From assembly GCA_015233145.1 (NCBI GenBank), contig JADFYI010000001.1:143345-207344 (forward strand): a stretch of 64,000 nucleotides of DNA, given 5' to 3'. The translations under genes and the position numbers were made by a program. The DNA is from Candidatus Omnitrophota bacterium. GTDB lineage: Bacteria > Omnitrophota > Gorgyraeia > Zapsychrales > Fredricksoniimonadaceae. Below are positions 29,451 to 46,275 of the stretch, piece by piece. The notes under the pieces were generated by a model, which was given only the letters and a program-made list of their open reading frames with translations, did not search any database and had not been told where the DNA came from. Position 1 is the stretch's first letter; each line of letters opens with the position of its first letter.

Positions 29451-29478
29451 TTGACATCTTTAGGAATATTAGTATAAT
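29451..29478 (+). promoter_or_regulatory. Consensus sigma70-type promoter for tRNA-Asn
   Basis: TTGACA, 16 nt, TATAAT, both hexamers perfect. It lies about 65 nt upstream of the tRNA 5-prime end. Confidence 0.55.
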
Positions 29479-29545
29479 TCAAGCACTTGATTTCCTCCTG
29501 CTTTTTCATATCGGCGGGATTTGTTCTTTATAGCCGTATCATCAT

Positions 29546-29836: not shown

Positions 29837-29845
29837 TTTATTTAG

Positions 29846-29880
29846 AAAGCCCATTCATTAATTTGGATGGGCTTTTTTAT
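29846..29880 (+). terminator. Rho-independent terminator after tRNA-Asn
   Basis: AAAGCCCAT...ATGGGCTTTTTTATTTT hairpin followed by a T-run. Confidence 0.6.
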
Positions 29881-29992: not shown

Positions 29993-31339
29993 ATGGACGC
30001 ATTAATGCTTTCCCGCTGGCAGTTTGCGGTCACAACATCGTATCATTTTCTTTTTGTCCCTTTATCCATTGGCATTGGGCTTATGGTTGCCATCATGGAA
30101 ACGCTTTACGTTGTGCGTAAAGACGATTTGTATCTCAGGATGGCGCAGTTCTGGGCCAAGTTTCTCCTTATTAGCGTGGCGCTGGGAGTGGTTACGGGGA
30201 TTGTGCTTGAATTCCAGTTTGGGTTAAACTGGGCGAGGTTTTCGCGTTATATTGGCGATATTTTTGGCCCGCCGCTGGCCATCGAATCATGGGCTGCATT
30301 TTTCCTTGAATCGGTTTTCATCGGCGTCTGGGTTTTTGGCGGCAAGAAAATATCTCCGAAACTGCACGCGTTCGCGTTATGGATGGTAACTCTGGGCGCC
30401 ATGCTTTCCGCCTTCTGGATCCTGACAGCCAATGCCTTCATGCAGGAGCCTGTGGGTTATGCTTTGCGTAACGGCCGCATTGAATTGGTGGATTTTCCCG
30501 CGGTTGTCTTTAATCCACAGACCATCCTGGAATTCTGGCACGCGGTCTATGCTTGCATCACGACGTCGGCTTTCTTCGTGATTGCGGTTTCGGCCTACCA
30601 TCTTCTCAAGAAAACTACTGAGGCCGAGTTTTTCCGTCGTTCGATGCGTATGGCTGTTTTTCTAGGGCTCGTTGGGATCATGGGGGTTGTTTTATCGGGG
30701 CATGAGATGGCCAAGCACGTGGCTTTTGCCCAGCCCATGAAATTGGCCGCATCAGAAGCTGTGTGGGACAAGACGACTACTGGCAGTGAATCGGTTTTTG
30801 CACTCATTGATGAGCGTGGTAAAAAAAATACGCTCGACATCCGGATACCGTATCTTTTGAATTTTTTCATCTACATGAAGCCAACCGGAACAGTGGCAGG
30901 CATCAATGATCTTCAGAAGGAATTTGAGGCCAAATACGGAACAGGGAATTACACGCCGCCCTTGAACCTGACCTACTGGTCTTTCCACCTCATGATCATG
31001 TCCGGGCTTTTGATGATGTTTATTTTATTTTGGCTTATGTTGGCAACCCGTAAGCCGCTTGTTTTTTCGCCTTTCATGCTTAAGGTTTTGATGGGGTCGG
31101 CAATTCTTCCGCATATCAGCAATATCACGGGTTGGATCATGACCGAGGTTGGCCGTCAGCCCTGGATAGTTTACACGCTCATGAAGACCAACGAGGGGCT
31201 GACTGAAAACCTGAACCCGGCCTATGCATTGTCGTCGTTTATTCTTTTTGTGTTGGTTTATACGATATTGATTTTCATTGCCGCCTCGCTGACCCTGCGG
31301 ATCATTATTGCCGGGCCTCTCGAGAGCGGAAATCGTTGA
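29993..31339 (+). CDS. cydA: Cytochrome bd-type quinol oxidase subunit I
   Basis: MLSRWQFAVTTSYHFLFVPLSIG N-terminus, GRQPW motif, 448 aa (short Q-loop form). Confidence 0.92.
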   Translation: MDALMLSRWQFAVTTSYHFLFVPLSIGIGLMVAIMETLYVVRKDDLYLRMAQFWAKFLLISVALGVVTGIVLEFQFGLNWARFSRYIGDIFGPPLAIESWAAFFLESVFIGVWVFGGKKISPKLHAFALWMVTLGAMLSAFWILTANAFMQEPVGYALRNGRIELVDFPAVVFNPQTILEFWHAVYACITTSAFFVIAVSAYHLLKKTTEAEFFRRSMRMAVFLGLVGIMGVVLSGHEMAKHVAFAQPMKLAASEAVWDKTTTGSESVFALIDERGKKNTLDIRIPYLLNFFIYMKPTGTVAGINDLQKEFEAKYGTGNYTPPLNLTYWSFHLMIMSGLLMMFILFWLMLATRKPLVFSPFMLKVLMGSAILPHISNITGWIMTEVGRQPWIVYTLMKTNEGLTENLNPAYALSSFILFVLVYTILIFIAASLTLRIIIAGPLESGNR

Positions 31340-32355
31340 AAGGAGTCGTGCCTGTGGACCTGCCGTTGATCTGGTTTCTTATTGTGGCTTATCTTTTTGC
31401 CGGATTCTTTCTCCTCGAGGGCTTTGACTACGGGGTCTGCATGCTTTTGCCGTTCATTTCCAATGAAGACGAACATCGCCGGATGATGATCGCGACCATC
31501 AGTGGTTTCTGGGACGGCAATGAAGTCTGGATGATCACTCTGGGGGCTGTGCTTTTTGCAGCCTTCCCGTCGTGGTATGCAACGCTTTTTAGCGGTATGT
31601 ATCCTGTTTTTGTCCTTATTTTGCTCGGTTTGATCGTCCGCGGGGTAGGGCTCAAGTTTCGTGATGACTACAGCGGACACACCTGGCGCTTTGGATGGGA
31701 CATGGCGCTGTGTGCCGGAAGCGTCCTTGTGGCGTTTTTGTGGGGCCTTATCGTCGGAAATATATTGCGCGGTATCCCGATCAATGCCGCCTTTTCCTAT
31801 GCCGGAGGATGCAGGGATTTAATCAATCCTTTTAGCGTGGCCAGCGGGATTGCCTTTGTGGCATTGTTTACCTTGCACGGCATGGTTTTCCTCAATATCA
31901 GGCTTACCGGCGAGGTGCTTCAAAAGGCCCAGAAGCTGTTTTTTCCTGTCTATGGTGTGACTTTGATAATCGCTGTGGCATTCCTGGCCAGTGCAGGGAG
32001 AGTGGCGGGGCTTTTTAAAAGCCCGTTGGCGTCACTGTTTTCTATTGCGGCAGCAACGGCGCTTTTGCTTATCGCTTTATGGTTTAAAAGGAATTCCTTT
32101 CTGGCGTTTTGGATGAGCGCAATGGCCATCGTTTTTTTGAGTGTTGCTGTTTTTGCCCGTCTTTATCCGCGGGTTCTTGTTTCCAGCCTGGATCCCCAAT
32201 GGAGCCTCACCATCTATAATGCCAGCGCGTCTTCGTATTCACTTAAAGTGATGAGCGTTGTGGCGATTATATTTATCCCCGGCGTTTTATTTTACCAGGG
32301 CTGGTCCTACTGGGTCCTGCGCAAGCGCATTGAAAAAAGTGACCTCGAGTATTGA
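31336..32355 (+). CDS. cydB: Cytochrome bd-type quinol oxidase subunit II
   Basis: Polytopic 339-aa protein with the FDYGVCMLLPF and WDGNEVWMI motifs. It overlaps the cydA stop. Confidence 0.88.
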   Translation: MKGVVPVDLPLIWFLIVAYLFAGFFLLEGFDYGVCMLLPFISNEDEHRRMMIATISGFWDGNEVWMITLGAVLFAAFPSWYATLFSGMYPVFVLILLGLIVRGVGLKFRDDYSGHTWRFGWDMALCAGSVLVAFLWGLIVGNILRGIPINAAFSYAGGCRDLINPFSVASGIAFVALFTLHGMVFLNIRLTGEVLQKAQKLFFPVYGVTLIIAVAFLASAGRVAGLFKSPLASLFSIAAATALLLIALWFKRNSFLAFWMSAMAIVFLSVAVFARLYPRVLVSSLDPQWSLTIYNASASSYSLKVMSVVAIIFIPGVLFYQGWSYWVLRKRIEKSDLEY

Positions 32356-32483
32356 TCAATCCCTGAAAATTGCATCTGTGCGTAGAAAAAAGTCAAAAGA
32401 AACACTTTTTTTTTATTTTGATGCGAGTATAATATAAAAATTACTTTAATTTTTTTATTAATTTCTTGGGGAACAAAATTCCT

Positions 32484-34367
32484 ATGGCATTACCTTTATT
32501 GGCCTTCCTTATATTATTCCCGTTGTTCATTGCGTTTTTGGTGTTGTTTGTCCGTAAGGAAGCCTTCTTTGCGGTAATCATTTATCCAGCTGCTGTCATC
32601 CTGATCGTGGCAACCTGTTTTTTACTGGGGTTGTCAGCGGGTGGAAGCCCAACGCTTATTGCTGTCCATGCGGGGTGGGTTGAACCGCTCATGCTTGTTG
32701 TTGAGGTTTTGGCTGCTATTTACCTTTTGTTTCTGGCAATCAAGCAGCGTGACTGGACTGTCAGCGCGCTTGTCATTATCCAGACTGTTGTTCTTTTAGG
32801 GTTTCATTTCAGCCGTGCTGGCGAGGTCCATACCAGGGCAGAACTTTTTATTGATGTTTTTTCGGTCATGATGGGGCTTGTTGTGGGTATTGTCGGCACC
32901 TTGATTGCAGTATTTGCGGTAGGGTATATGCGGGATATGCATCACCACCAGCATGAGATCCCTGATGGCCGCCGGGTGTTTTTTAGCATCATTTTCCTGT
33001 TTCTTTCCGCAATGTTTGGGGTCTGCTTCTCTAATAATCTCAGCTGGATGTTCTTTTTTTGGGAAATAACAACCGTTTGTTCGTTCTTAATGATCCGCTA
33101 CAAGGGTGATGCGACATCTGTAAAGAATGCTTTCTGGGCCCTGCGCTGGAACCTTTTAGGCGGTTTGGCATTTTTGATCGGCATTATTTACCTGTGCCTG
33201 ACACACCATACGATTGAACTCGACAAGATGCTCGCACTTCCCAAGGCATGGGTCATGCTGCCTGTGGCGCTCTTCTGTTTTGCGGGTTTGACAAAGTCAG
33301 CGCAGCTGCCTTTTTCATCCTGGCTGGTGGGTGCCATGGTGGCTCCCACACCGGTTTCAGCGTTGTTACATTCTTCAACCATGGTCAAGGCAGGCGTTTA
33401 TATTGTCTTGAGGCTTGCCACATCCCTTGAAGGGACTTTTGTTGGCCTCATTGTTGCTTTTGTTGGCCTTATCACATTTTTGATCTGTTCTTTTATTTGT
33501 ATCAGCCAGAATGATGCCAAGAAAGTGCTGGCGTATTCGACGATCGCTAACCTGGGGCTTATTATTCTGTGTGCCGGTATTGGTTCTCCCCAGGCGGTAT
33601 GGGCCGGGATGCTGCTCATTGTTTTCCATGCTGTTTCCAAGGGGCTTTTGTTCCTGTGTGTCGGTTCAATTGAACACAAACTCCACAGCCGCCAGATTGA
33701 GGACATGTCCGGGCTTATCATACGGCTTCCCAAGCTGTCGGTCATGCTCCAGATCGGTATTGCAGGGATGTTTTTAGCGCCGTTCGGGATGCTTATCAGT
33801 AAATGGGCAGTCCTTCGCGCTATTGTTGATTTTAATCCTTTCTTTGCGCTCTTTTTGATCTACGGCAGCACCGCAACCCTTTTCTTCTGGGTGAAGTGGC
33901 TTGGCAAGGTGATTACAGTGGAAAAGGATTATAAGAATGAAGAAACCGGCATTTCGCTGGATCAATGGATACCCATGGGGATATTAACGGCCCTGACAGT
34001 CTTGATTTGCGGTCTCTTTTCGCCGTTCGCTAATATACTCATTGAACCGTATATTGTTGCGCTCTATGGCCGTGAAGTAACGCTGGGGGCCGGCAATATG
34101 CTGATCATGTCGATCATGCTTACGTTTATCGCCCTTTTCCCGCTGACCTTTCTGCCGACGCGCGGCGTGAAAATGGCAAAACCTTATCTGGGCGGCGCTA
34201 ATGTTGGCGATGGCCGGCAGTTTCGCGATTCGCTGGGGGGTGTTAAGCCCATGCATATGAAGAATTTCTATATGGAAGAATATTTCTCAGAGACACGCCT
34301 GATGAGGCTTGGCGTCATTGTGACAACGGTCTTTTTGGCTGCAATGCTTGCGGCCGGAGGGATGTGA
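32484..34367 (+). CDS. Group-4 [NiFe]-hydrogenase membrane subunit, NuoL/EchA/HyfB-like antiporter module
   Basis: About 627 aa and polytopic. Proton-pump family motifs (WEITTVCSFLMI, LPFSSWLVGAMVAPTPVSALLHSSTMVKAGVY). Alternative TTG start at 32466. Confidence 0.8.
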   Translation: MALPLLAFLILFPLFIAFLVLFVRKEAFFAVIIYPAAVILIVATCFLLGLSAGGSPTLIAVHAGWVEPLMLVVEVLAAIYLLFLAIKQRDWTVSALVIIQTVVLLGFHFSRAGEVHTRAELFIDVFSVMMGLVVGIVGTLIAVFAVGYMRDMHHHQHEIPDGRRVFFSIIFLFLSAMFGVCFSNNLSWMFFFWEITTVCSFLMIRYKGDATSVKNAFWALRWNLLGGLAFLIGIIYLCLTHHTIELDKMLALPKAWVMLPVALFCFAGLTKSAQLPFSSWLVGAMVAPTPVSALLHSSTMVKAGVYIVLRLATSLEGTFVGLIVAFVGLITFLICSFICISQNDAKKVLAYSTIANLGLIILCAGIGSPQAVWAGMLLIVFHAVSKGLLFLCVGSIEHKLHSRQIEDMSGLIIRLPKLSVMLQIGIAGMFLAPFGMLISKWAVLRAIVDFNPFFALFLIYGSTATLFFWVKWLGKVITVEKDYKNEETGISLDQWIPMGILTALTVLICGLFSPFANILIEPYIVALYGREVTLGAGNMLIMSIMLTFIALFPLTFLPTRGVKMAKPYLGGANVGDGRQFRDSLGGVKPMHMKNFYMEEYFSETRLMRLGVIVTTVFLAAMLAAGGM

Positions 34368-34368
34368 T

Positions 34369-35217
34369 ATGTCCTGGATAACTGGACTCGCTTTTGTGTT
34401 TTTTGCGCCGTTTGTGGGTGGGCTTATTGCAGGGTTTGACCGCAAGATTACGGCGCGTTTGCAGGGCCGTATCGGGCCGCCGATACTTCAGCCTTTCTAC
34501 GATGTGGGCAAGCTTTTGCAGAAAGACAATCTGGTTGTTCGCAGGTCACAGCATTTGTACACGGAGTTCTTTTTTGTTTTGACCATTTTTACGGGTGCGC
34601 TTTTCTTTGCCGGCGGAGATCTTCTGCTTGTAATTTTTTCCCTTGCAATGGCCGGCGTTTTCTTTGCGCTTGGCGGTTACAAGGCAAGTTCTCCTTACAG
34701 CTTCATCGGCGCTCAGCGCGAGGTTTTACAAATGGTTTCCTATGAGCCTGCGGTTCTTTTGGCTGCAGTGGGGATGTATATGGTCACGGGAAGTTTTAAG
34801 GTTTCTGTGATTGCCGCTTATCCCAAGCCTTTGGTCATGCTTTTGCCCGGCATATTTTTTGCGTTCTTTTTTATCCTGCCGGTCAAGTTTCGGAAATCCC
34901 CCTTTGACCTTTCGACCTCACATCATGCGCATCAGGAGATTGTTAAAGGGATCACAACCGAAATATCCGGCAAGACCCTGGCACTTGTGGAAATAGCGCA
35001 TTGGTATGAGTATGTTTTTGTGCTGGGGATGGGGTATTTGTTTTTCGCTTCAAACATCTGGCTGGGGCTTGTGATGACGTTTGTCATTTTTGAGCTTTTG
35101 CTGGTCGTTGATAATTCAACGGCCCGCGTGCGCTGGCAGGCCATGATGGCCAGTTCCTGGATCGTCGCGCTTGTGGCGGGCGGTTTAAATATTCTCTATT
35201 TGATGCTGAGGCACTGA
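34369..35217 (+). CDS. Group-4 hydrogenase membrane subunit, NuoH/EchB/HycD-like
   Basis: FDRKITARLQGRIGPPILQPFYDVGKL is the NuoH-family signature. Polytopic. GGAGGG RBS upstream of ATG 34369. Confidence 0.82.
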   Translation: MSWITGLAFVFFAPFVGGLIAGFDRKITARLQGRIGPPILQPFYDVGKLLQKDNLVVRRSQHLYTEFFFVLTIFTGALFFAGGDLLLVIFSLAMAGVFFALGGYKASSPYSFIGAQREVLQMVSYEPAVLLAAVGMYMVTGSFKVSVIAAYPKPLVMLLPGIFFAFFFILPVKFRKSPFDLSTSHHAHQEIVKGITTEISGKTLALVEIAHWYEYVFVLGMGYLFFASNIWLGLVMTFVIFELLLVVDNSTARVRWQAMMASSWIVALVAGGLNILYLMLRH

Positions 35218-35218
35218 T

Positions 35219-35659
35219 ATGGGCATGCTTTCAAAATCACCATGGGTTATTCATTATGATGGTTCAAGCTGTAACGGCTGTGACATCGAGGTCCTGGCAG
35301 CTTTAATGCCGCGCTTTGATGTTGAACGTTTCGGCGTTGTGAATACCGGCAATCCGAAACATGCGGATATCCTGCTTTTGACAGGATCCATTAACGAGCA
35401 GAATAAGCCGGTTGTCCTTAATATTTATGAGCAAATGCCCAACCCCAAGGTGGTTCTCGCCGTCGGGATTTGCGCGACCTCAGGTGGGATTTTTCGCGAA
35501 TGTTACAACGTTCTGGGAGGCGCTGACAAGGTTCTTCCGGTGGATGTGTATGTGCCCGGATGCGCTGTTCGTCCGGAGGCTATTATTGACGCTGTCGTCA
35601 AGGGTGTGGGAATACTTGAACAAAAACGCGCGGCCATGCTTGCGGCCCAGAAGGCATAA
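35219..35659 (+). CDS. [NiFe]-hydrogenase small subunit, NuoB/EchC-like
   Basis: 146 aa with four Cys for the proximal [4Fe-4S] cluster (GSSCNGCDIE, GICATSGG, VPGCAVRPE). Confidence 0.88.
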   Translation: MGMLSKSPWVIHYDGSSCNGCDIEVLAALMPRFDVERFGVVNTGNPKHADILLLTGSINEQNKPVVLNIYEQMPNPKVVLAVGICATSGGIFRECYNVLGGADKVLPVDVYVPGCAVRPEAIIDAVVKGVGILEQKRAAMLAAQKA

Positions 35660-35662: not shown

Positions 35663-36037
35663 ATGAATCAACAAACTTATACCGATATTGAGGTCAAAGA
35701 CCTTTTGTCCACAGCTTCCCGGATGAAGGATGCGGGCCAGCGCCTTGTGCAGATCTGCTGCACAAAACTACCAGACAGGCTCGAAATCCATTATTCATTT
35801 GACAAGGACTATGCGTTCACCAGTTTTCGTTTGACGCTTAAAGACAATTCAACGATTGTGCCGAGCATTAGCAAGGTCTACTGGAATTCTTTCCATTACG
35901 AGAATGAAATCCACGATCTTTTTGGTATCAAGGTTGAAGGCAATGTGGTTGATTACCAGGGCAATTTTTACCGCACGGCCATCAAAACTCCCTTCAATAT
36001 CGCGACACCGGCTGCAGAAGGGGAGAAGAAATCATGA
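35663..36037 (+). CDS. Hydrogenase subunit in the EchD position, with a NuoC-like motif
   Basis: 124 aa. HYENEIHDLFGIKVEG resembles the NuoC ERExxDxxG motif. Its position between the small and large subunits matches EchD/MbhK/CooU. Confidence 0.62.
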   Translation: MNQQTYTDIEVKDLLSTASRMKDAGQRLVQICCTKLPDRLEIHYSFDKDYAFTSFRLTLKDNSTIVPSISKVYWNSFHYENEIHDLFGIKVEGNVVDYQGNFYRTAIKTPFNIATPAAEGEKKS

Positions 36038-37113
36038 GCGAACGGACAATCATACCTTTTGGGCCCCAGCATCCGGTATTACCCGAGCCGATTCACCTTG
36101 ACCTTGTGGTTGAGGATGAGAAGGTTGTTGAGGCGATCCCTTCCATCGGGTTCATTCACCGCGGCCTGGAACGGCTTGTGGAGAAAAAGGATTTTATTGA
36201 TTTTGTTTATGTCGCGGAACGCATTTGCGGCATCTGCAGTTTTATCCATGGCCTGACCTATTGCATGTCCATTGAAGAACTCATGAAAATTGATGTGCCT
36301 GAGCGCGCGCATTACCTTCGGACAATCTGGTCAGAGCTTTCGCGTATCCACAGCCATTTGTTGTGGCTGGGGCTGACCGCAGACAGTTTCGGGTTTGAGA
36401 GCATGTTCATGCAGTCGTGGCGTCTGCGCGAGTATATCCTCGATATTATTGAAGAAACCACCGGCGGCCGTGTTATTTTCGGTTCTGCCAAAATCGGCGG
36501 CGTGCGCCGGGATATTTCTCCCGAAAAGATGGCTGAGATCATTAAGAAGCTTCGCGGTTATCAAAAGGATGTGCGCGCGTTGTTTGAAGAGCTTTTAAAG
36601 GACGAGACAGTCAAACACCGCATGAAGGGCGTTGGCCTTCTTTCAAAAGAAGAGGCCAAGAGCTTAGGCGCTGTCGGGCCAATGCTCCGTGCGAGCGGAG
36701 TGGCGCAGGATATCCGTATGATGGGGTATGCGTCATACGCAAAAATCGGATTTGAGCCTGTTGTTGAGACCGGAGGCGATTGTTTTGCGCGTTGTCAGGT
36801 CCGTGCGCGGGAAACAGATGCTTCTTTTGATATGATTTATCGCTGCGCTGAACAAATGAAAGAGGGCTCGCTTGATGTGAAGGTAACAGGGTTTCCGAAC
36901 GGCGAATTTTTTGCGCGTTCGGAACAGCCCCGAGGCGAGGTTATTTATTATGCCAAGGCCAATGGCACAAAGTTTCTTGAGCGCATGCGGGTGCGTACGC
37001 CTACTTTTGCAAACATTCCGCCTTTGCTCTCCACATTGCGCGGATGCCAGCTGGCGGATGTTCCGGTCATTATTTTGACAATAGACCCGTGCATCAGTTG
37101 CGCGGAAAGGTAA
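36034..37113 (+). CDS. Group-4 [NiFe]-hydrogenase large (catalytic) subunit, EchE/NuoD-like
   Basis: N-terminal Ni-binding motif RICGICSFIHG and C-terminal DPCISCAER. The protein ends right after the second CxxC, so no C-terminal peptide needs cleaving. Confidence 0.9.
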   Translation: MSERTIIPFGPQHPVLPEPIHLDLVVEDEKVVEAIPSIGFIHRGLERLVEKKDFIDFVYVAERICGICSFIHGLTYCMSIEELMKIDVPERAHYLRTIWSELSRIHSHLLWLGLTADSFGFESMFMQSWRLREYILDIIEETTGGRVIFGSAKIGGVRRDISPEKMAEIIKKLRGYQKDVRALFEELLKDETVKHRMKGVGLLSKEEAKSLGAVGPMLRASGVAQDIRMMGYASYAKIGFEPVVETGGDCFARCQVRARETDASFDMIYRCAEQMKEGSLDVKVTGFPNGEFFARSEQPRGEVIYYAKANGTKFLERMRVRTPTFANIPPLLSTLRGCQLADVPVIILTIDPCISCAER

Positions 37114-37115: not shown

Positions 37116-37460
37116 ATGGGTTTTCTGGGAATCTCAAAAACAGTATTAAAGAATTTTGTCACAGGCCCTGTGACAGAGCGTTATCCTTTTGTGCCAAAGA
37201 ATTATCCGGCGGGCGCGCGGGGCAAGGTTGATATTGATATCGCGAAATGCATTTTTTGCGGCATTTGCCAGCGCAAATGCCCGACGGCCGCGATCGTCGT
37301 GACCAAGGAACCTAAAGTGTGGGAGATCGACCGCTTGCGCTGTATTTCCTGCAATTATTGTGTTGAGGTCTGCCCCAAAAAGTGCCTGGCTCTTAATACA
37401 AAATATTCTCCGTGTTCAGCGGAAAGATATAAAGATTCTTTTGCTCCGGAGAAGGCCTGA
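37116..37460 (+). CDS. 2x[4Fe-4S] ferredoxin-like subunit, EchF/NuoI-like
   Basis: CIFCGICQRKCP and CISCNYCVEVCP motifs. The start is set at MGFLGISK (ATG 37116), directly after the large-subunit stop. Confidence 0.82.
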   Translation: MGFLGISKTVLKNFVTGPVTERYPFVPKNYPAGARGKVDIDIAKCIFCGICQRKCPTAAIVVTKEPKVWEIDRLRCISCNYCVEVCPKKCLALNTKYSPCSAERYKDSFAPEKA

Positions 37461-37795
37461 TGCATGAATCCCACCAGGTTCAGCATTTGATCAAGCATGC
37501 CCAGGAACTGCTCCTTGAAAAAAAGATCGTCAAGCCTTCAAGGATCACGATCCTTGTCGGCGAAGCGCTGGGGTTTGACGAGATGTCGGTCAGGCTGCAC
37601 TGGGAAGAGTTTGCGTTGGGGACACCCCTTGAAAGCGCCCAGCTTGTTGTTAATTTCGCGCCTGTTAATTTAAAGTGCCCTGCCTGCCAGTTTGTGTTTT
37701 CTAAAAAGAAATCGCAAATGGATTGCCCGAAATGTCATACCCTTGGCCAGCCGACGGATTCCGGAAAAGAATTTAAGATTGTTTCCATCCATTAA
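37460..37795 (+). CDS. hypA: Hydrogenase nickel-insertion protein HypA
   Basis: MHE N-terminus (Ni site) and a Zn ribbon CPACQ...CPKCH in 111 aa. It overlaps the echF-like stop by 1 nt. Confidence 0.85.
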   Translation: MHESHQVQHLIKHAQELLLEKKIVKPSRITILVGEALGFDEMSVRLHWEEFALGTPLESAQLVVNFAPVNLKCPACQFVFSKKKSQMDCPKCHTLGQPTDSGKEFKIVSIH

Positions 37796-37813: not shown

Positions 37814-39127
37814 ATGTGTTATGCCATTCCCGGTCGTGTAAAATCGTTTGACGGAAAATTTGCGGTCGTTGATTATTTTGGCGAAGAAAAGAAAGCCATT
37901 AACGAGCTGACAAATCTTCACACGGGTGATTATGTCTATGCCCAGGGTGGTTTTGTCATCAGCCGCGTGTCGCGCTCTGAGGCAGAATCAACGCTCGAAA
38001 CCTGGAAGGATCTTTTTTTTGAATTGCAGGAACTGGATGCGAAGTCAAGTCAGCTGACGCCCTGGGGCAGGAAAAAGTTTGACCGCGTGCGTTTGCTCAT
38101 GGACCGCGCTGCCGCCGGAGAAAAGCTGACTTTGGAGGATATCCTTTATCTTGTCAGGATCAAGGACCCCCAGGAAAGGGAGTTCTTTTTCAGTGCGGCG
38201 AATAATCTTCGCCAGAAGTATCATAAAAATTCCTGCTGTGTGCACGGGATCGTTGAGATATCAAATTATTGCGCTGAACGCTGTCAGTATTGCGGCATTT
38301 CTCTTTTAAATTCAGGTCTGACGCGTTACAGGATGACACCTGATGAGATTTTTGAGGCTGTCCGCGTTGCTGTGATTGACCATGGGTTTAAGGCGCTTGT
38401 CCTCCAAAGCGGGGAAGACGCGGGACGAACAGTTAAGGAGCTTGCGGAGATTGTCGCACAGATCAAGCGCCGTTTTGATGTCCTTATTTTCGTGAGTTTT
38501 GGCGAGGTGGGGTGTGAGGGCCTTAAATCTTTGTATGAGGCGGGCGCAAGGGGGCTGTTGCTGCGTTTTGAAACATCGTCGGCTGAACTCTATGCGCAGG
38601 TTCACCCTGGCTCTCTCCTCAAAGACCGCATTGCCGAGATTCGCGCGGCCGCAGACATGGGATATTTGATCGTGACAGGATCCCTCATTGGCCTGCCGGG
38701 GCAGACCGATGAGGATATTGCGCGAGATCTTATACTGGCAAGGGACCTTAATGTTGAAATGCTTTCCCTGGGGCCAGTTGTACCGCACCCCCAGACGCCG
38801 TTAGCAAGAATTGTCCGGCCATCTGTCACGGATGTGGTGCAGGTTTTGGCAGCGGCGCGTTTTGTCCTGCCGGCACAGGCAAAAATACTGGTAACAACAG
38901 GGCTTGAGACACTGGATGCTTCGGCGCGCCGTGCAGGGCTTATGGCAGGTGCCAATTCCGTGATGCTCAATGTGACACCTGTTGCCCAACGGGCCTTGTA
39001 TGAAATTTATTTGAATCGCGCCCATCAGGATGACCCTTTGGGTGAGCAGGTTGAGGCAACTAAAGCGCTTTTACAGGGTATTGGAAGAGCGCCCACAGAT
39101 TTGAGTGTTGGTATGGATAAAAATTAA
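37814..39127 (+). CDS. Fusion protein: HypC/HupF-like chaperone domain + HydE-like radical-SAM domain
   Basis: The N-terminus MCYAIPGRV...GDYVYAQGGFVISRVSRSEAESTLETWKDLF matches the HypC pattern with Cys2. Residues ~95-437 hold CAERCQYCG (CX3CX2C), RYRMTPDEI, VLQSGED, GLPGQT, GPVVPHPQTPLA and GANSVMLNVTP, collinear with Thermotoga HydE as I recall it. It is one uninterrupted 437-aa ORF. Confidence 0.8.
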   Translation: MCYAIPGRVKSFDGKFAVVDYFGEEKKAINELTNLHTGDYVYAQGGFVISRVSRSEAESTLETWKDLFFELQELDAKSSQLTPWGRKKFDRVRLLMDRAAAGEKLTLEDILYLVRIKDPQEREFFFSAANNLRQKYHKNSCCVHGIVEISNYCAERCQYCGISLLNSGLTRYRMTPDEIFEAVRVAVIDHGFKALVLQSGEDAGRTVKELAEIVAQIKRRFDVLIFVSFGEVGCEGLKSLYEAGARGLLLRFETSSAELYAQVHPGSLLKDRIAEIRAAADMGYLIVTGSLIGLPGQTDEDIARDLILARDLNVEMLSLGPVVPHPQTPLARIVRPSVTDVVQVLAAARFVLPAQAKILVTTGLETLDASARRAGLMAGANSVMLNVTPVAQRALYEIYLNRAHQDDPLGEQVEATKALLQGIGRAPTDLSVGMDKN

Positions 39128-39142: not shown

Positions 39143-40027
39143 ATGCATATCCCCAGTTCAATGTTACATGGCGCTGTTTGCCCGGTCACAGTTGCTGTGA
39201 GTGTAGCCGGTGTTGGCGCAGCGATTTATGTGGCGCGTAAGGTTCAGGAAAAACCAACAGCGCTAAAGTTTGCGACACTTACATGTATGATTTTTGCTTT
39301 GCAGATGCTGAACTTTCCGGTCCAGAACGGGACTTCCGGGCATTTGCTGGGAGGGGTGCTCGCTGTTGCGCTGTTGGGCATTCCTTTTGCAGTCATTGCC
39401 ATGGCCATTGTGTTGACTGTCCAGGCTGTATTTTTTGCTGATGGCGGAGTCAATGCTTTGGGCGCGAATATTATCAATATGAGTTTTATCGGCGCGGCAT
39501 GCGCAGGGTTATTGTTTTATGCCCTAAGGCGTAAAGGCATGGCCCTTGGGATTGCGTTGGCAATCACGTCCTGGATATCGGTTGTCATGGCCAGTGCAGC
39601 GTGTGCGCTTGAGCTTTCGCTTGCAGGTACGGTCAATTTTTCAAAGGCACTTACGGCCATGGTCTCTGTCCATGCCTTGATCGGCCTGGGGGAAGCTGTG
39701 GTAACGGTGGGATTGTTTGCGGCCTTAGAAGCGGTGACCCGTAACCGCAGGTCAGGATTGACAGCTGTCGCTTCATTCGGTGTGGCAGCCATGGCTGCCA
39801 TGCTAAGCCCTTTTGCCAGCAAGTTCCCAGACGGACTTGAATTCGTTTCTAAACAAATGGCTTTTGTCACGTTTAGCAATGTTAAAGTTAATGCGCTCTT
39901 TTCGGATTATCAGATTCCCGCCCTGGGAAGCACGGCCTTGTCAACAATATTGGCTGGCCTTATCGGCGTGGGGATTGTGTTGGCTCTGGCGTATGTTTCA
40001 GCTAGGTCATTGACGCAACGCCAATAA
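39143..40027 (+). CDS. CbiM/NikM-type ECF-transporter substrate component with C-terminal PDGLE domain (Ni/Co uptake)
   Basis: MHIP N-terminus, NGTSGHLLGG, FFADGGVNALGANIINM, then a literal PDGLE motif and a final TM. AAGGAG RBS. Confidence 0.75.
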   Translation: MHIPSSMLHGAVCPVTVAVSVAGVGAAIYVARKVQEKPTALKFATLTCMIFALQMLNFPVQNGTSGHLLGGVLAVALLGIPFAVIAMAIVLTVQAVFFADGGVNALGANIINMSFIGAACAGLLFYALRRKGMALGIALAITSWISVVMASAACALELSLAGTVNFSKALTAMVSVHALIGLGEAVVTVGLFAALEAVTRNRRSGLTAVASFGVAAMAAMLSPFASKFPDGLEFVSKQMAFVTFSNVKVNALFSDYQIPALGSTALSTILAGLIGVGIVLALAYVSARSLTQRQ

Positions 40028-40149
40028 AGCTGAGACAAAAGCAATCCAGCCGTCCATCAAACCATATAAAAAAACATTTTTTATAGTTTCTTTTAATTTT
40101 GGAAAGTTATAATTATAGAAAGATACTATTGTCTCTGAGACTAGTCCCC

Positions 40150-42726
40150 ATGGAGGCGATTTTGATACGTCTGCATCAAAACATTCCTGTTTTTCTAAAA
40201 TCATTGTTTTTTACATTAGTACTTTCCCTGTTTCTGTTCACGGCTCAAGCCACTTCAGCATACACTATCACAAATAACAATGATAATGATGATACCACCC
40301 CGGGTTCATTAAGGACTGCTATTACGAATCACAATACTGATATTGAATTCAATAACATTGGTTCAATTACTTTGCTTTCTAACTTACCTAATATCCTGGG
40401 AGGAGACACAACTTTTGATGTGTTGGGTGCTTATAATGTGACTATACTAAACTTTGGAGTATTTAATAATGACAGTATTCAATTTGAAAATTTGGGAGAG
40501 TCGGGAACATTTACTATTTCCAATTCTCATTGGCAAACCAATTCAATATTATATGTTGCCATGACCCAAAGTGGTACGTTGAATATTTCTAATGGTTCCT
40601 TAATGGAAAGCTCTGATGGATATGTGGGAGCTAGTGCAGGTTCTATTGGCAGTGTGACTGTGGATAGCGCTTCCCAATGGAACCTGACGGGGAATCTGTA
40701 TGTTGGCGGAACCGGCACAGGGACATTGCAGATATCTGGCGGCGGTGTTGTGAATTGCTATGACGCAATTATTGGCAATGATTTAACTGCGGTTGGTAAT
40801 GTGACTGTCAGCGGTTCTGGATCCAAGTTAAAAGCAGCTGACGGCCTCGAAGTTGCCTCGACTGGCACAGGAACGCTTACAATTTCCAACGGCGGGACAG
40901 TCACGGTTAATAATGGTGCAGGAACAGTTCTTTTGGCAGGGGATGATCCGGCTGCTGTAGGCACGCTTAATATCGGAGCCGGCGCATCAGCAGGAACCTT
41001 GGAGGCTCTCACCGTTTCCGGCGGCGATGGCACGGCTGTTGTTAATTTTGACCATAATGAAACAGCTTACAATTTTTCCCCGACCCTTTCCGATAATTTA
41101 AGTGTTAACTTAAACGGCACAGGCGCCACAATCCTTTCCGGCTCAAACAATTATACAGGCCCAACCACTGTCAATGACGGAACCCTTCGCCTGAACAGCG
41201 CCAGCATCAGCGCTTCAGCTGTTACGGTTAAAAGCGGGGCGAAGTTGGCAGGCAAGGGCACTCTGGGAGGCGCGCTCGACATGAAGTCGGGCAGTTCTTT
41301 TGACGTCACGTTAAAGAATACGACAACGTATGACCAGATACGCCTTACCCATAACGGCAATGTCTTTGAAAGCAATGTCACGGTTAACGTGACATTAGAT
41401 GCCGGCGCGTCCATCAGTAACGGCAACCAGTTTTTAATCATCCGAAGCGACGGAACCATAACCACAGCGACCCCTACAATCGTATTCGGGGATTCCAGTT
41501 GGACTTTTAGTCCCAGTTGGGGGACTCTTGATACGTTATATGGATTGATCCTCACGGCGCAGGCACCCCATACAGCGACCTATGTTTCACAGACCACAAC
41601 GCAGGATGCCCAGGGTCCTGCCGCGGCTTTGGATAATGCCAAGTCTGCTGGCGCATCAGGGGACATGCAAACAGTATTAAATACGTTGGATAATCTTTCT
41701 GGCGATCAATTGACGTCCGCGCTTGATGCCATGCTTCCGGACATCAGCGGGTCTAATCCCCAGGTTTCTGTGCAATTGTTGGATCAGTTTGTAGGCGCGC
41801 AGATGAATCATTTGGGCGGCGTGTCAGAGTTGGCGTTGGCGGATGATACCACACCCCAAACCGGCGTGTCCGCAGGGGAAGCGCCCAGTCCCTATTCCAC
41901 ATGGTTTAAGGGATTCGGCAGTTATGCCCATCAAGACCCCCGGGGAACAAGCCAGGGATATAATTTTTCCAATGTCGGCGGCGCTCTTGGCGTTGACATG
42001 AAGGCCTCTGACACTGTGACAACAGGTTTGGCTTTTGGTAACTCTGAAAGCTGGGTGCGCTCCAAGGACAGCGCTGCACGTACACTCATCAATGCCTCGC
42101 AGGTGTCCTGGTACAGCGGATTTAAACCTATTTCCAACCCATGGTATTTCAATACCGCATTCACATATGCGTATAATCAATATGTTGGATCAAGAGAGAT
42201 TCATATCAGTCCCACGGATAATCGCGTCGCCAATGCCCATTATCGCGGAGGTCTTTATGGCGCGGCCCTGGAAACAGGTTACGCCATTAAACTCGGCAAA
42301 GTAATCTTCACGCCATTGACCGCATTGTCTTACAGCCGTTTACATGTGGCGAAATACGCAGAAGCAGGTGCTGACGCGTTAGACCTGAATGTCAATGAAC
42401 AAAATTATGATAACTTGCGCACGGCCCTGGGGGGAAAGCTCGAGGTTAAGCGAGAGTTTTCCTGGGGGTCATTACTGCCTGAAATTCATGCCAGGTATTC
42501 GTACGATATCATTGCGGACAGGCAGAATATGGTGGCTTCCTTTGCCGGAGGCGGCACAGCTTTTACAACACAGGGCTATAAGCCGGCAAAGTCCGGGGCC
42601 AGCGTGGGAACAGCGGTCACCCTTGCGACGAAAAGAAATATCACAATCTCGTTGGAGTATGACCTGGAACTCCGTGAAGATTATTACGCCCACACAGGAT
42701 TCCTGAACGTGACGTTTAAATTCTAA
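40150..42726 (+). CDS. Autotransporter (type Va) outer-membrane protein
   Basis: Signal peptide LFFTLVLSLFLFTAQATSA. Passenger with repeated GTGTLxISNGGxV and NYTGPTTVNDGTLRL beta-strand repeats. C-terminal beta-barrel of about 280 aa ending NVTFKF. The start could also be 40099. Confidence 0.82.
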   Translation: MEAILIRLHQNIPVFLKSLFFTLVLSLFLFTAQATSAYTITNNNDNDDTTPGSLRTAITNHNTDIEFNNIGSITLLSNLPNILGGDTTFDVLGAYNVTILNFGVFNNDSIQFENLGESGTFTISNSHWQTNSILYVAMTQSGTLNISNGSLMESSDGYVGASAGSIGSVTVDSASQWNLTGNLYVGGTGTGTLQISGGGVVNCYDAIIGNDLTAVGNVTVSGSGSKLKAADGLEVASTGTGTLTISNGGTVTVNNGAGTVLLAGDDPAAVGTLNIGAGASAGTLEALTVSGGDGTAVVNFDHNETAYNFSPTLSDNLSVNLNGTGATILSGSNNYTGPTTVNDGTLRLNSASISASAVTVKSGAKLAGKGTLGGALDMKSGSSFDVTLKNTTTYDQIRLTHNGNVFESNVTVNVTLDAGASISNGNQFLIIRSDGTITTATPTIVFGDSSWTFSPSWGTLDTLYGLILTAQAPHTATYVSQTTTQDAQGPAAALDNAKSAGASGDMQTVLNTLDNLSGDQLTSALDAMLPDISGSNPQVSVQLLDQFVGAQMNHLGGVSELALADDTTPQTGVSAGEAPSPYSTWFKGFGSYAHQDPRGTSQGYNFSNVGGALGVDMKASDTVTTGLAFGNSESWVRSKDSAARTLINASQVSWYSGFKPISNPWYFNTAFTYAYNQYVGSREIHISPTDNRVANAHYRGGLYGAALETGYAIKLGKVIFTPLTALSYSRLHVAKYAEAGADALDLNVNEQNYDNLRTALGGKLEVKREFSWGSLLPEIHARYSYDIIADRQNMVASFAGGGTAFTTQGYKPAKSGASVGTAVTLATKRNITISLEYDLELREDYYAHTGFLNVTFKF

Positions 42727-42768
42727 ATCCTGAATTCTAAAATAAATCCATATTCCAGAGGCACATCT

Positions 42769-45700
42769 GTGCAACACCAACAAGGCCAATTTCAAAGTTT
42801 CGATGGTCTGAGCCTTTTTTATCAGTCCTGGAAACCTGCCCAAGAGCCGCGGGCCGTCATCGTCATTATCCACGGCAGTCTGGAACACAGCAGCCGGTAT
42901 AACGACATTGCCAGCCACCTGGTTAATCAGGGTTATGCGGTCTATGCTTTTGACATGCGCGGCCATGGACGTTCCGGTGGAGAACGGGTTTTTATCCGTT
43001 CTTTTGAAACCATTTACCAGGATGTGGATGCTTTCCTTGATTACGTGCGAAAAGAGGAGCCCAAGGGAAAAATATTTCTTCTCGGACATAGTGTTGGCGC
43101 GGCTATTACGGTTGCTTTTTTGATCACGCGCACCCCGACGATAGCCGCTGGCGCCATTTTGAGCGCGCCGCCTCTTAAAAACAACAGCAGCGTCCCGTTT
43201 CCTGTTCAGATTTTAACATCCGCATGCGCCTTCTTTTTTCCACGATTGAAACTTTATAAACTCAACTCCAAACTAGTGTCCCGCGACCGTGCGGTCATTG
43301 CCAGTTACGACAATGATCCCCTGGTTTATAAAGACGGGATCTGTGCCGCAACCCTGCAAGCGTTTATTCACAACAACAGGATGATCCAGAAACAGATGGA
43401 ACGGCTTACAACTCCTTTTCTGGTCATGCACGGGACAGCAGATTATCTTTCTGACATGGCAGGGAGCCAGGAGCTTTTTGCCCGTGCCAGTGCTACGGAC
43501 AAGACAATTAAATTGTTTGATAATTTTTATCATGAACTTTTTAATGAGCCTGGCAGAGAAAAAGTTTTTGATGAAGTTGCGCGCTGGATAGAGCTTCGCC
43601 TGGGCAATGAAGCTTTTCATGAAACAGAATTTCTTATCCCTGATAAATTTGAAAATACGGCACGCCAGTTTCCTCTACGCATCGCGTTTCAGTACCAGGA
43701 GGGTGGGGAGTGGCGTTATATCACTTACCAGGAGCTTTTAACCTCGGTTGTTAAAATAGCAGGTTTTCTTTTGAAGCAGGGCCTGGGCCAAGGGGATTGC
43801 ACCGCGATTGTGCTTGAGAATCGGCCGCAGTGGCCCATGGTTTACCTTGGCGCACTCAAGGCCGGTCTTACTTGCGTTCCCATAGACCCACATTTGTCAC
43901 CGGAAGAAATTAAAAATCTTCTCATAAACAGCGCCTCGAAGGCGTTGTTTTGTTCTTACGAACTTTGGACACAACTCAACAATGCGGGCCTGCCGGCCTC
44001 TTTGTCCAGAACAATTGTGTTGGATGCAGAGGGTGACATTTCACAAAAATTTATGCCTTTTACTGCCATTGATGAAGCATCGGGCGATATTCTTCATTGG
44101 CCAAAGATCAGCTCCAACGAAATTGCGTCGTTGCTTTACACCTCAGGCACCACAGGGCAGCCTAAGGGTGTTATGTTGTCGCACAAAAATATTTGTGCCA
44201 ATTTTCACAGTATCAATAAACTAAACCTTTATTATCCGTCGGATAATGTGCTGGCGCTTTTACCTTTGTACCATACCTATGCTTTTATGGTGACGCTCAT
44301 TACTCCGCTTTTTTTGGGCGGCCGCGTTACTTTTTGCCCATCGGGATTCAAGCCTGAGGACTTGGCTGGTATCATTCGGGAATCCGAAGTCTCGCTTCTG
44401 ATCGGCATCCCGCGGGTGTTTGCGCTTTTTCTTTCTGCAATATTGGAAAAGTTAAAACCTGTGCCTTCTTTTTTACGCAGCCTTGTGGTTCCATTAATTC
44501 GTCATGAGCTTCGCCAAAAATTTGGAAAGTGGCTCAGGCTTTTTGTTAGCGGCGGCGCCAGGCTTGAGGCTGAGACGAGCCGTGATATTACGAAATATTT
44601 TGGCCTTAAAATTTTAAACGGTTACGGGATCACGGAAACGTCTCCGGTTGTTACCCTGACCAGGCCTGACCGTATTCGATTCGGAACAGTGGGCACGCCT
44701 ATTCCTGATGTAAAAATCAAAATCCTTGATCCTGACAAAGAGGGGATTGGTGAAATCCTTATCAGCGGGGCCAACGTGTTTAAGGGGTATTTTAAACAGC
44801 CTGAACTGACAACCCAGGCCATTGAGAATAGCTGGTTTCATTCAAACGACCTGGGCTTTATTGATAAAGACGGCAACCTGCACATTGCGGGCCGAAAGAA
44901 CGATGTGATCATCCTGGCGTCAGGGAAGAACATTTACCCTGAGGAGCTGGATGAATATTACGGCCGTTCTCCATTTATCAAGGAAATTTGTACCATCACC
45001 CGTGAGGAAAAGGTTTTTGGCCATAATAAAGAAGTGCTTTTTGCCGTGATTGTTCCCAATCTTGACTATTTCAAGAAGATTAATGAAACCAACATTAATG
45101 ACAAAATTCGCTGGGAACTCGAGAACATGGGGAAGGCCTTGCCTGCTTATAAACATCTTATGGGCTTTGCCTTGACCACCACTGAGTTTCCGCGTAATGC
45201 CTTGCGTAAAATCAAACGTTTTGAGGTGCGTAATCAATTTCACGATGCCCTTCACCAGGTAGATGCTAACTCGGCGCAAGCTTCGGAAGGCCTGGATTTA
45301 AATGAGACTGCTACTGCCAAAAAAACCATAGAATACATCTCCTCCCAGGTAAGTCGCCCTGTGACCCAAAAAAGCCATCTGGAAATTGACCTGGGAATTG
45401 ATTCTTTAACGCGGATTGAACTTGCCCTTGGCCTTGAAGCTATTTTTAAAATCAAGATTCCGGAAAAGGCTATTTATCAAGTGGCCACCATCAAGGACTT
45501 GATTGAGCTTGTCTCTTCCCTGAGACAGGAAGCTTCCGCGGTGTCCTCCCTGGAAAAAGAGGATTGGATTAAAACTCTGCTCAAACAGCCTGATGACGAG
45601 ACGCTTGCCAAGATTGAACTCAAAACAGGTTTCTTTGAATACATTCTTACAGGGTTCTTTAAAATATTCTACGCCTTTTGGTTCAAAATCCTGTGGTTTT

Positions 45701-46275
45701 TAAGGATCAAGCGGACCGTGTCCTTGCCGGAAGCGCCGTTTTTAATTTGCCCTAACCATGCCAGTTTTCTTGATGGGCTTATTATTTTTAACGCATTGCC
45801 GTTCAAGCTTGCCATCAAAACTTATTTCCTTGGTTATCAACATATTTTTGAGCATCCGCTGCTCAAATGGGCCAACCGCAGCGCGCGCCTTGTTTCAATT
45901 GACAACAGCCAGCATTTGAACGAAGCCATGCGTACAGCGTCCTATCTTCTCAAACAGGGGAAAATTGTGTGTGTTTTCCCCGAGGGGCAGCGTTCGATTG
46001 ATACTAATGTTGCCAAATTCAAGAAAGGCGCGGCTATTCTTATCAAAGAACTTGGTATTCCGGTCATCCCGGTTTATATTCAAGGCTCTCATCAGGCGTG
46101 GCCCCGCGGAAAATTTCTTCCGCGGATTTATCCTATCAAGGTGACGCTTGGTAAACCTTTGACGGCCGCAGACCTCGCTGAAAAAGGTAAGAAATTTTCA
46201 TCTGCCGATGAATACGACGCCATTGCCCAGGCATTACGGGAAGAAGTCCTCAAATTATCTTCTTCTGCTGAATAG
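42769..46275 (+). CDS. Four-domain fusion: alpha/beta-hydrolase (lysophospholipase/MGL-like) + acyl-CoA/ACP synthetase (AMP-binding) + carrier-protein domain + PlsC-type acyltransferase
   Basis: HGSLEHSSRY...GHGRSGG, GHSVGA (GxSxG) and MHGTADY. YTSGTTGQPKGVMLSH, GYGITETSP and the rest of the AMP-binding core. LGIDSLTRIEL (phosphopantetheine Ser). A TM stretch, then NHASFLDG (HX4D) and FPEGQRS. GTG start. Confidence 0.8.
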   Translation: MQHQQGQFQSFDGLSLFYQSWKPAQEPRAVIVIIHGSLEHSSRYNDIASHLVNQGYAVYAFDMRGHGRSGGERVFIRSFETIYQDVDAFLDYVRKEEPKGKIFLLGHSVGAAITVAFLITRTPTIAAGAILSAPPLKNNSSVPFPVQILTSACAFFFPRLKLYKLNSKLVSRDRAVIASYDNDPLVYKDGICAATLQAFIHNNRMIQKQMERLTTPFLVMHGTADYLSDMAGSQELFARASATDKTIKLFDNFYHELFNEPGREKVFDEVARWIELRLGNEAFHETEFLIPDKFENTARQFPLRIAFQYQEGGEWRYITYQELLTSVVKIAGFLLKQGLGQGDCTAIVLENRPQWPMVYLGALKAGLTCVPIDPHLSPEEIKNLLINSASKALFCSYELWTQLNNAGLPASLSRTIVLDAEGDISQKFMPFTAIDEASGDILHWPKISSNEIASLLYTSGTTGQPKGVMLSHKNICANFHSINKLNLYYPSDNVLALLPLYHTYAFMVTLITPLFLGGRVTFCPSGFKPEDLAGIIRESEVSLLIGIPRVFALFLSAILEKLKPVPSFLRSLVVPLIRHELRQKFGKWLRLFVSGGARLEAETSRDITKYFGLKILNGYGITETSPVVTLTRPDRIRFGTVGTPIPDVKIKILDPDKEGIGEILISGANVFKGYFKQPELTTQAIENSWFHSNDLGFIDKDGNLHIAGRKNDVIILASGKNIYPEELDEYYGRSPFIKEICTITREEKVFGHNKEVLFAVIVPNLDYFKKINETNINDKIRWELENMGKALPAYKHLMGFALTTTEFPRNALRKIKRFEVRNQFHDALHQVDANSAQASEGLDLNETATAKKTIEYISSQVSRPVTQKSHLEIDLGIDSLTRIELALGLEAIFKIKIPEKAIYQVATIKDLIELVSSLRQEASAVSSLEKEDWIKTLLKQPDDETLAKIELKTGFFEYILTGFFKIFYAFWFKILWFLRIKRTVSLPEAPFLICPNHASFLDGLIIFNALPFKLAIKTYFLGYQHIFEHPLLKWANRSARLVSIDNSQHLNEAMRTASYLLKQGKIVCVFPEGQRSIDTNVAKFKKGAAILIKELGIPVIPVYIQGSHQAWPRGKFLPRIYPIKVTLGKPLTAADLAEKGKKFSSADEYDAIAQALREEVLKLSSSAE

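Follow-up and report, generated by a model that had tools for sequence, protein, structure and literature searches.

Why does an operon for a [NiFe] hydrogenase contain a gene that joins the iron carrier of [NiFe] maturation to a relative of an [FeFe]-hydrogenase maturase? This question is raised by a 64,000-nucleotide (nt) stretch of contig JADFYI010000001.1 from a Candidatus Omnitrophota bacterium (here called the window), in which an open reading frame (ORF) of 437 amino acids (aa) connects an N-terminal HypC domain with a C-terminal radical S-adenosylmethionine (radical-SAM) domain resembling HydE. The maturation of [NiFe] and of [FeFe] hydrogenases is treated as the work of two unrelated machineries. 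HydG, a tyrosine lyase of the radical-SAM type, produces CO and CN− and builds an [Fe(Cys)(CO)2(CN)] synthon; to our knowledge, it is known only as an [FeFe] maturase, and HydE only from [FeFe]-hydrogenase assembly. An initial annotation had proposed a radical-SAM step coupled physically to the HypC iron carrier. The comparative evidence presented here supports such a coupling in [NiFe] maturation, and a role of the fusion in this process is, judging by sequence and gene context, quite likely.

One reading frame with two conserved domains

The gene starts with ATG and extends without internal stop over 37814..39127 on the forward strand, confirming by translation the single ORF of the initial annotation; all motifs quoted there (the MC start, CAERCQYCG, RYRMTPDEI, VLQSGED, GLPGQT, GPVVPHPQTPLA and GANSVMLNVTP) are present. 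The assignment of the N-terminal half to HypC held in the profile search, in which HupF_HypC (PF01455) matched aa 1-64 with 53-58 bits (cutoff 28.5, E 3e-14). The stricter HypC model TIGR00074 gave 39-44 bits for the window copy, under its cutoff of 48; among relatives it gave 52 (L006) and 51 (P0127), over the cutoff, and 46 (P0123), under it (L-numbers denote loci of relatives, P-numbers representative proteins). This half aligns end to end with the solved HypCs 2z1c, 3d3r and 2ot2 (from Thermococcus kodakarensis, Shewanella and Escherichia coli). MCYAIPG was invariant in an alignment of 18 sequences; in a 66-sequence alignment M1, C2, Y3, I5, P6 and G7 were invariant and A4 nearly so. Both alignments also have an invariant Gln44, which replaces the canonical His51 (E. 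coli numbering), the column being His in all three solved HypCs, and conserved W64, F68, F69, L71 and D75 at the start of the linker. A 2025 review (PMC12134894) counts H51 of HypC, along with C2 and HypD C41, among the residues implicated in the retention of iron by the HypCD scaffold.

In the C-terminal half, Pfam recognized Radical_SAM (PF04055, aa 147-304) and BATS (PF06968, aa 323-406). The top NCBIfam model was TIGR03956 (HydE; aa 96-424, E 8.5e-68) with 229-230 bits vs an equivalog cutoff of 254.6, and three fusion relatives scored 224-239 bits as whole proteins. The other radical-SAM models stayed far under their cutoffs (PylB 129 vs 348, BioB 107 vs 225, HmdB 69 vs 321 and ThiH 56 vs 380 bits), so that HydE is the best-matching family. 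The radical-SAM motif CX3CX2C is formed by C153/C157/C160 (aa 153-160, nt 38270-38293, as CAERCQYCG at aa 153-161), a family-specific C141-C142-V-H144 is encoded at nt 38234-38245, and the domain ends in GRAPTDL. HydE of Thermotoga maritima matched it with 191 bits in a sequence search. An AlphaFold2 model based on the 66-sequence alignment (predicted local distance difference test 91.4, predicted template modelling score 0.90) consists of a five-strand beta domain, a long helix (54-78) and a barrel; the latter score would imply a fixed arrangement of the two domains. The predicted barrel matched T. maritima HydE (7o1p) at a target-normalised template modelling score of 0.96 with a root-mean-square deviation of 1.6 Å and about 33% identity, ahead of PylB and BioB (Foldseek).

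The architecture is not restricted to the window. In a collection of 5.8 billion proteins clustered at 90% identity, each of the 120 best clusters (53-100% identity to the window protein) had both domains, and nearly all had a length of 430-447 aa; the identical protein is encoded there on a 231-kb contig of a 'Candidatus Omnitrophica' metagenome-assembled genome. Taking one genome per species (185,579 species), at least 344 genomes encode a relative. The best 80 of these belong mostly to Omnitrophota, with Spirochaetota/Brevinematales, Margulisiibacteriota/Saganbacteria/WOR-1, Elusimicrobia and 'Planctomycetia' as further labels. Carriers of the fusion include the complete chromosomes CP070684.1 and CP070797.1 and the large contigs JBAZUE010000001.1 (0.92 Mb), CAVYGN010000001.1 (1.8 Mb) and CAWCLF010000001.1 (2.7 Mb).

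A hydrophobic protein of about 95 aa starting with MCYTVPA... and lacking a Pfam hit was noticed at several of these loci (L006:11388-11678, L012:11338-, L007:14390-14677; also L034 and L019). It is encoded directly 3' of the fusion in some Mbh- or Ech-type loci and 3 kb downstream in others. Its Met-Cys start is like that of HypC, to which it is not related in any other respect; it resembles a membrane protein.

A remodelled HydE-type pocket

In HydE, M224 and M291 hold Fe(I)(CO)2(CN)S intermediates, R54, T134, R155 and T269 contact the cyanides, and K309 is a relay residue (PMC11826987). With these roles taken from the same source, we mapped the pocket of 81 distinct fusions in T. maritima HydE numbering. 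Both methionines (M316 and M384 of the window protein) were kept in 81/81, as were the SAM-cluster cysteines, T268, Q107, L157 and E161; T269 was kept in 80. Equally uniform were the changes V51C, H52C, R54H and R155G/A, found in all 81, while T134F occurred in 65 and K309R in 72. R54, T134 and R155 correspond to H144, F226 and G247/A in the numbering of the window protein. The three cysteines of the accessory [2Fe-2S] cluster of HydE are absent from the fusions. Canonical HydEs of the same lineages keep the T. maritima residues at nearly all mapped positions.

When the 150 nearest representatives, out of 1.84 billion proteins, were compared, the signature C52/H54/F134/G155 tracked the HypC fusion, including members with mis-called starts: every HypC-fused sequence bears C52/H54, and HydE of the R54/T134/R155 type is never fused to HypC. 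Signature-bearing sequences and one derived relative formed a separate clan in neighbour-joining (NJ) trees (bootstrap 66/70), with canonical HydE outside; the clan held after removal of the signature columns. We regard the radical-SAM half, on its sequence, as a distinct paralog of HydE and name it HydE-prime (HydE'). The HydE-likeness seen in the initial annotation was therefore correct as to the best-matching family and fold, but the half belongs to a separate subfamily with a remodelled pocket and not to HydE proper. Canonical unfused HydE is abundant in Omnitrophota, so that the phylum has both. In L005, L031 and L061 a genuine HydE stands beside the fusion; the one in L005 has 335 aa and scores 368 bits on TIGR03956, and that locus also encodes HydF and HydG.

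Some other HydE-family proteins carry different N-terminal extensions (P0199, P0205, P0206, P0240; P0147, P0190, P0224). One of these extensions forms a domain about 100 aa long that contains a conserved Cys (...VP.P......C..A...) and resembles DUF3343; it is fused to a HydE-like barrel with an I/VD-I/V-R motif. A second, different extension of about 100 aa precedes an otherwise canonical HydE (R54-type, accessory cysteines present). Fusion of carrier domains to HydE-like enzymes may thus be a recurrent theme.

Gene neighbourhoods of the fusion

Neighbourhoods were compared over ±10 kb around the fusion in 80 distinct species loci (1.30 Mb in total). A [NiFe] large subunit was encoded in 67 of the 80, vs [FeFe] HydA in only 9, which substantiates the association with [NiFe] enzymes. 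HypA was found in 54 loci, HydG in 42 and Rex in 36, HydF and canonical HydE in two each. The fusion is the last or next-to-last gene of three types of [NiFe] operon (Ech-like, four-subunit group-3-like and Mbh/Mrp-like), in which it lies directly 3' of HycI and/or HypA. In L004, L008, L009, L011 and L013 it is followed by the same CbiM/NikM-PDGLE gene as in the window. The neighbouring large subunits keep their metal-binding cysteine motifs. HycI tracks the C-terminal extension of the large subunit (both in 55 loci, neither in 15, 3 exceptions), and the window operon, which has neither, fits this pattern.

Searches for the remaining maturation genes covered 93 loci and the window, i.e., 1.61 Mb of flanking sequence (tblastn/phmmer, E<=1; the E. 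coli HypD, HypE and HypF queries had been validated against the PDB beforehand, the HypB query had not). There was no match to HypD, HypE or HypF and no standalone HypC in these 1.61 Mb. A single HypB was detected among the 93 loci, in L069, in the order HypA-HypB-fusion and with HydG adjacent. Large neighbours of 750-800 aa were considered as an unrecognised HypF or HypD and turned out to be H+-pyrophosphatase and GT20 glycosyltransferase. Other recurrent neighbours included NfnB/GltD-like, NuoF-like and ATP synthase genes, and one with a weak match to haloacid dehalogenase-like hydrolases.

The link to HydG

In some relatives, HydG is part of the same polypeptide. P0123 (906 aa) and P0127 (881 aa) are HypC-HydE'-HydG triple fusions, with HydG scores of 607 and 631 bits for the whole proteins; P0123 closes a group-3-like [NiFe] operon and P0127 is encoded among genes for [NiFe] small and large subunits and HypA. 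Furthermore, two unfused HydE' genes (L092 and L093) are each directly followed by HydG, in L092 immediately after a [NiFe] large-subunit gene. Small ORFs 5' of the standalone HydE' genes were considered as split-off HypC and rejected: one encodes the C-terminal end of a [NiFe] large subunit, while the product of the other resembles a small DNA-binding regulator. The associated HydGs that were tested alone reached 462-491 bits, over the equivalog cutoff of TIGR03955, and keep a C-terminal cysteine motif of the type that ligates the HydG auxiliary cluster.

These arrangements make cooperation of the fusion with HydG probable. They also bear on an earlier suggestion that the gene could be linked to the anaerobic origin of the CO ligand. 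With this CO/CN synthase next to the fusion in roughly half of the loci and covalently joined to it in some relatives, such a link would most likely run via HydG and not via the HydE-like domain itself.

Two further observations concern these genes. At the locus of P0127, a divergent triple fusion (L091:5723-19205), the [NiFe] genes are unusually fragmented, being scattered among unrelated genes (molybdopterin oxidoreductase-like, 23S rRNA-intervening-sequence protein, methyltransferase, acyltransferase), with HypA 6 kb downstream. A HydG subtype of about 498 aa (462-467 bits on TIGR03955) has C-X5-C-X5-C-X13-C in place of CX2CX22C, with the same 27-residue span. It occurs in L005:801-2297, L051:11308-12807 and about 15 other loci, beside canonical HydE/HydF as well as beside the fusion.

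A proposed maturation route and its alternatives

We lean towards the view that the fusion is a dedicated [NiFe]-hydrogenase maturation factor, in which a route of the HydG/HydE type loads the tethered HypC. HydG would supply an organometallic iron unit; HydE-prime would bind it in its HydE-like pocket via the two retained methionines and strip the cysteine scaffold by 5'-deoxyadenosyl radical chemistry. Since the cyanide-contact residues of the 2Fe dimerisation in HydE are replaced, two units would not be dimerised for HydF. Instead, the pocket would hand a mononuclear Fe-CO/CN fragment to C142/H144 and then to Cys2 of the HypC domain, tethered to HydE-prime by what may be a rigid helical linker, and this domain would insert the fragment into the apo large subunit. 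HypA would next add nickel, supplied here by the adjacent CbiM/NikM transporter, and HycI would trim the large subunit only in operons with a C-terminal extension. HydG and HydE-prime would in this way do the job that HypD/E/F and the anaerobic CO source have in the canonical pathway. That the fusion and HydG fully replace HypDEF is a more tentative proposition, and it is no more than tentatively that we suggest that the Fe(CN)2(CO) unit of [NiFe] enzymes is made without HypD/E/F, via HydG, HydE-prime and HypC, in Omnitrophota and in several further lineages of anaerobes.

Alternatively, the fusion could be an accessory factor beside the canonical Hyp machinery. The genes hypD/E/F, and perhaps a standalone hypC, would then lie elsewhere in the genome, the radical-SAM domain would add one step (such as anaerobic CO generation, or the reduction of iron and its loading on HypC), and the adjacency of HydG would mainly reflect the clustering of hydrogen-metabolism genes. 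Indeed, hyp genes are often dispersed and the loci cover only ±10 kb each, and part of the source data of Seymour 2023 contains canonical hyp sets (hypA-E) for at least two Omnitrophota genomes (231, 104). In the clade of the window (L004, L008-L016), where CbiM follows the fusion, no HydG lies within ±10 kb of the fusion, nor in the 64 kb of the window, so that the HydG link of the window gene is extrapolated from relatives at about 55% identity. The HydGs next to fusions are also of the same types as those next to canonical HydE/HydF: a fusion-specific HydG paralog was considered and rejected, as both cysteine types occur by fusions and the variant also by canonical HydE/HydF. These points favour an accessory role and weigh against a dedicated HydG-dependent route. 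Other points weigh against this route as well. The 2 CO and 1 CN of the HydG synthon do not match the 1 CO and 2 CN of the [NiFe] site; [FeFe] hydrogenase genes lie downstream of the fusion in 9/80 loci, so that some of the HydG adjacency could serve [FeFe] maturation; and NJ trees and neighbourhood statistics are correlative. We nevertheless consider a purely accessory role rather unlikely. HypA and HycI are nearly always encoded at the locus, yet no HypD/E/F was detected in the 1.61 Mb, and both the triple fusions and the HydE'-HydG pair suggest that the fusion and HydG work together directly. The His51 of HypC, used on the HypCD scaffold, has been lost, and the retained methionines that bind Fe(CO)2(CN) imply an organometallic substrate already equipped with CO and CN.

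It is less probable still that the fusion is simply the HydE of this lineage for the [FeFe] H-cluster, its HypC-like domain having been recruited as an iron or sulfur carrier and its position in [NiFe] operons being incidental. By family and by fold the closest match is HydE, whose M224 and M291 the fusions retain; HydG often lies next to the fusion, Rex-regulated [FeFe] genes lie downstream in some loci, and NCBI labels many members 'HydE'. However, every member tested alone scores under the HydE equivalog cutoff, and the family forms a separate clan. Genuine HydE coexists with the fusion at three loci and canonical HydE is common in the phylum, while HydF and HydA are rare neighbours compared with the [NiFe] large subunit. 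In the window itself, an Ech operon is accompanied by hypA and a gene for Ni uptake, but hydA, hydF and hydG are missing, and the cyanide-contact residues R54, T134 and R155 are replaced. Finally, an accidental or artefactual fusion without functional coupling (frameshift, misassembly or neutral gene fusion), for which only the general possibility in a metagenome-assembled genome speaks, is refuted, because at least 120 clusters and 344 species, with several phylum labels and from independent assemblies, share this architecture and length, the linker is conserved, the predicted template modelling score is high, and the pocket signature covaries with the fusion.

The hydrogenase operon and other features of the window

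The fusion follows six Ech-type (group 4) subunit genes and hypA and precedes the CbiM/NikM-PDGLE gene, probably a Ni uptake component (Table 1), in agreement with the context given in the initial annotation.

Table 1. Hydrogenase operon of the window and domains of the fusion protein (window positions)
Feature	Position	Strand	Evidence
Ech-type membrane subunit, NuoL/antiporter-like, EchA-like	32466..34367	+	PF00361 180 bits, PF00662
Ech-type membrane subunit, NuoH-like, EchB-like	34348..35217	+	PF00146 152 bits
[NiFe] hydrogenase small subunit, NuoB-like, EchC-like	35219..35659	+	PF01058 108 bits
NuoC/30-kDa-like subunit, EchD-like	35663..36037	+	PF00329 40 bits
[NiFe] hydrogenase large subunit, EchE-like	36034..37113	+	PF00346 195 bits, PF00374 52 bits
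2x[4Fe-4S] ferredoxin subunit, EchF-like	37116..37460	+	Fer4 families
hypA, nickel insertion metallochaperone	37460..37795	+	PF01155 69 bits, full length
Fusion: HypC domain (aa 1-64)	37814..38005	+	PF01455; alignment to solved HypCs; predicted five-strand beta domain
Fusion: helical linker (aa 65-95)	38006..38098	+	Alignments; AlphaFold2 helix 54-78
Fusion: putative HydE-prime radical-SAM domain (aa 96-437)	38099..39127	+	TIGR03956, fold match, residue mapping, clan
CbiM/NikM-type metal-uptake membrane protein + PDGLE domain	39143..40027	+	PF01891 148 bits, PF13190 41 bits

The genes are tightly spaced, with 18 nt between hypA and the fusion and 15 nt between the stop of the fusion and the CbiM/NikM-PDGLE gene. 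The EchE-like large subunit has both Cys pairs (RICGICSFIH and DPCISCAER) and terminates right after the second without a C-terminal extension, so that HycI is not needed. The EchF-like ORF as listed begins at 37044 and overlaps the large-subunit gene by 70 nt; its true start is likely the ATG at 37116 (MGFLGISK...), right after the large-subunit stop, and the L004 homolog has 113 aa. Neither Pfam searches of the large ORFs nor tblastn/phmmer (E<=1) detected hypB, hypD, hypE or hypF in the 64-kb window (the HypB query again without PDB validation), as the initial annotation had stated; nor did the annotation of the large ORFs reveal hydA, hydF or hydG there. According to Pfam, the remaining large ORFs comprise housekeeping and envelope genes only. 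In a promoter and terminator scan of the hydrogenase operon, no candidate exceeded the expectation from shuffled sequence.

The genes for both subunits (I and II) of cytochrome bd oxidase lie at 29993-32355, on the strand of the Ech operon and just upstream of it. A presumed anaerobe here has an oxidase that scavenges oxygen beside a hydrogenase that is sensitive to it. The region 40099-46275 on the other side contains, right 3' of the hydrogenase cluster, an 875-aa autotransporter (beta-domain and PATR repeat), and a 1168-aa protein with alpha/beta hydrolase, AMP-binding, phosphopantetheine-binding and acyltransferase domains; both are apparently unrelated to the fusion. Further upstream, a group I catalytic intron (RF00028) was matched over the full model at 29571-29791 (70 bits vs gathering threshold 50, E 1e-17; Rfam). 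It sits inside an apparent tRNA gene (29545-29837, +) between recR and cydA, the 5' half of which reads ...TCCCCTGTAGCTCAGTTGGTAGAGCA and the 3' half of which reads ...GGTTCGAGCCCTAGCGGGGGA. ARAGORN calls this tRNA only with introns allowed; the splice boundaries are uncertain and the anticodon is therefore not fixed. A perfect TTGACA-16-TATAAT promoter-like site (29451-29478) lies 5' and a terminator-like hairpin of 14 bp (29844-29877) lies 3' of this gene.

Significance and comparison with known systems

The fusion family is widespread and conserved and joins the iron carrier of the [NiFe] pathway to a remodelled maturase of the [FeFe] type, i.e., known modules in a new, cross-pathway combination. 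Neither a HypC-HydE fusion nor a role of HydG, HydE or radical-SAM enzymes in [NiFe] maturation was found described in the open-access full-text literature, the supplements of Williams 2021 contain no hyp or hyd terms, and the NCBI family library of June 2026 holds no model for the HypC-HydE-prime family. The 2025 review of [NiFe] cofactor assembly does not mention radical-SAM enzymes and names the anaerobic origin of the CO ligand as the most pressing open question (PMC12134894). If the proposed route is correct, the CO and CN of [NiFe] sites built under anoxia would have a defined enzymatic origin, and that question would be answered for these organisms. The route would also constitute a second, evolutionarily hybrid pathway of [NiFe] maturation and an evolutionary bridge between the two maturation systems, and its compact cassette of two or three genes could help the heterologous production of hydrogenases. 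The finding matters for annotation as well, because database names of the members are inconsistent ('HydE', 'biotin synthase', 'radical SAM protein', 'HypC'); the current names would mislead metabolic reconstruction, e.g., by suggesting [FeFe] maturation in cases in which the only hydrogenase is a [NiFe] enzyme.

HypX, an aerobic CO synthase that converts formyl-tetrahydrofolate via formyl-coenzyme A to CO and works with HypCD, sets a precedent for an accessory enzyme dedicated to providing HypC-bound iron with CO (PMC12134894). HypX operates under oxic conditions, and its fold and chemistry are unrelated to those of the fusion. With HypC, HybG and HupF the fusion shares the Met-Cys start, the end-to-end alignment, the predicted beta-barrel with C-terminal helix, and the gene position by hypA, hycI and the large subunit; it differs by the covalently attached radical-SAM enzyme, by Gln in place of His51, and by having no HypD partner gene in the 93 loci or the window.

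The likeness to HydE extends over the fold, CX3CX2C, the residues M224/M291, T268/T269, Q107, L157 and E161, and the frequent partner HydG. The differences are the pocket (V51C, H52C, R54H and R155G/A, mostly also T134F), the lack of the accessory [2Fe-2S] cysteines, the N-terminal HypC domain, the TIGR03956 score below cutoff, the separate clan, and the occurrence in [NiFe] operons, usually with no HydF or HydA nearby. HydG, for its part, is a neighbour in about half of the loci and the covalent third module of P0123 and P0127, but this window does not encode it, and the CO:CN ratio of its product does not fit the [NiFe] site.

Fused maturases have parallels within the [FeFe] pathway. One is the HydEF fusion of algae. 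Another is P0137 (803 aa), a canonical HydE-HydG fusion without HypC (HydE 394 and HydG 531 bits for the whole protein). The pocket of P0137 is of the R54/T134/R155 type, and of the three accessory cysteines it has two. Such proteins show that consecutive maturation enzymes are commonly fused. However, they stay in the [FeFe] pathway with a canonical pocket, whereas the fusion described here appears to cross into the [NiFe] pathway.

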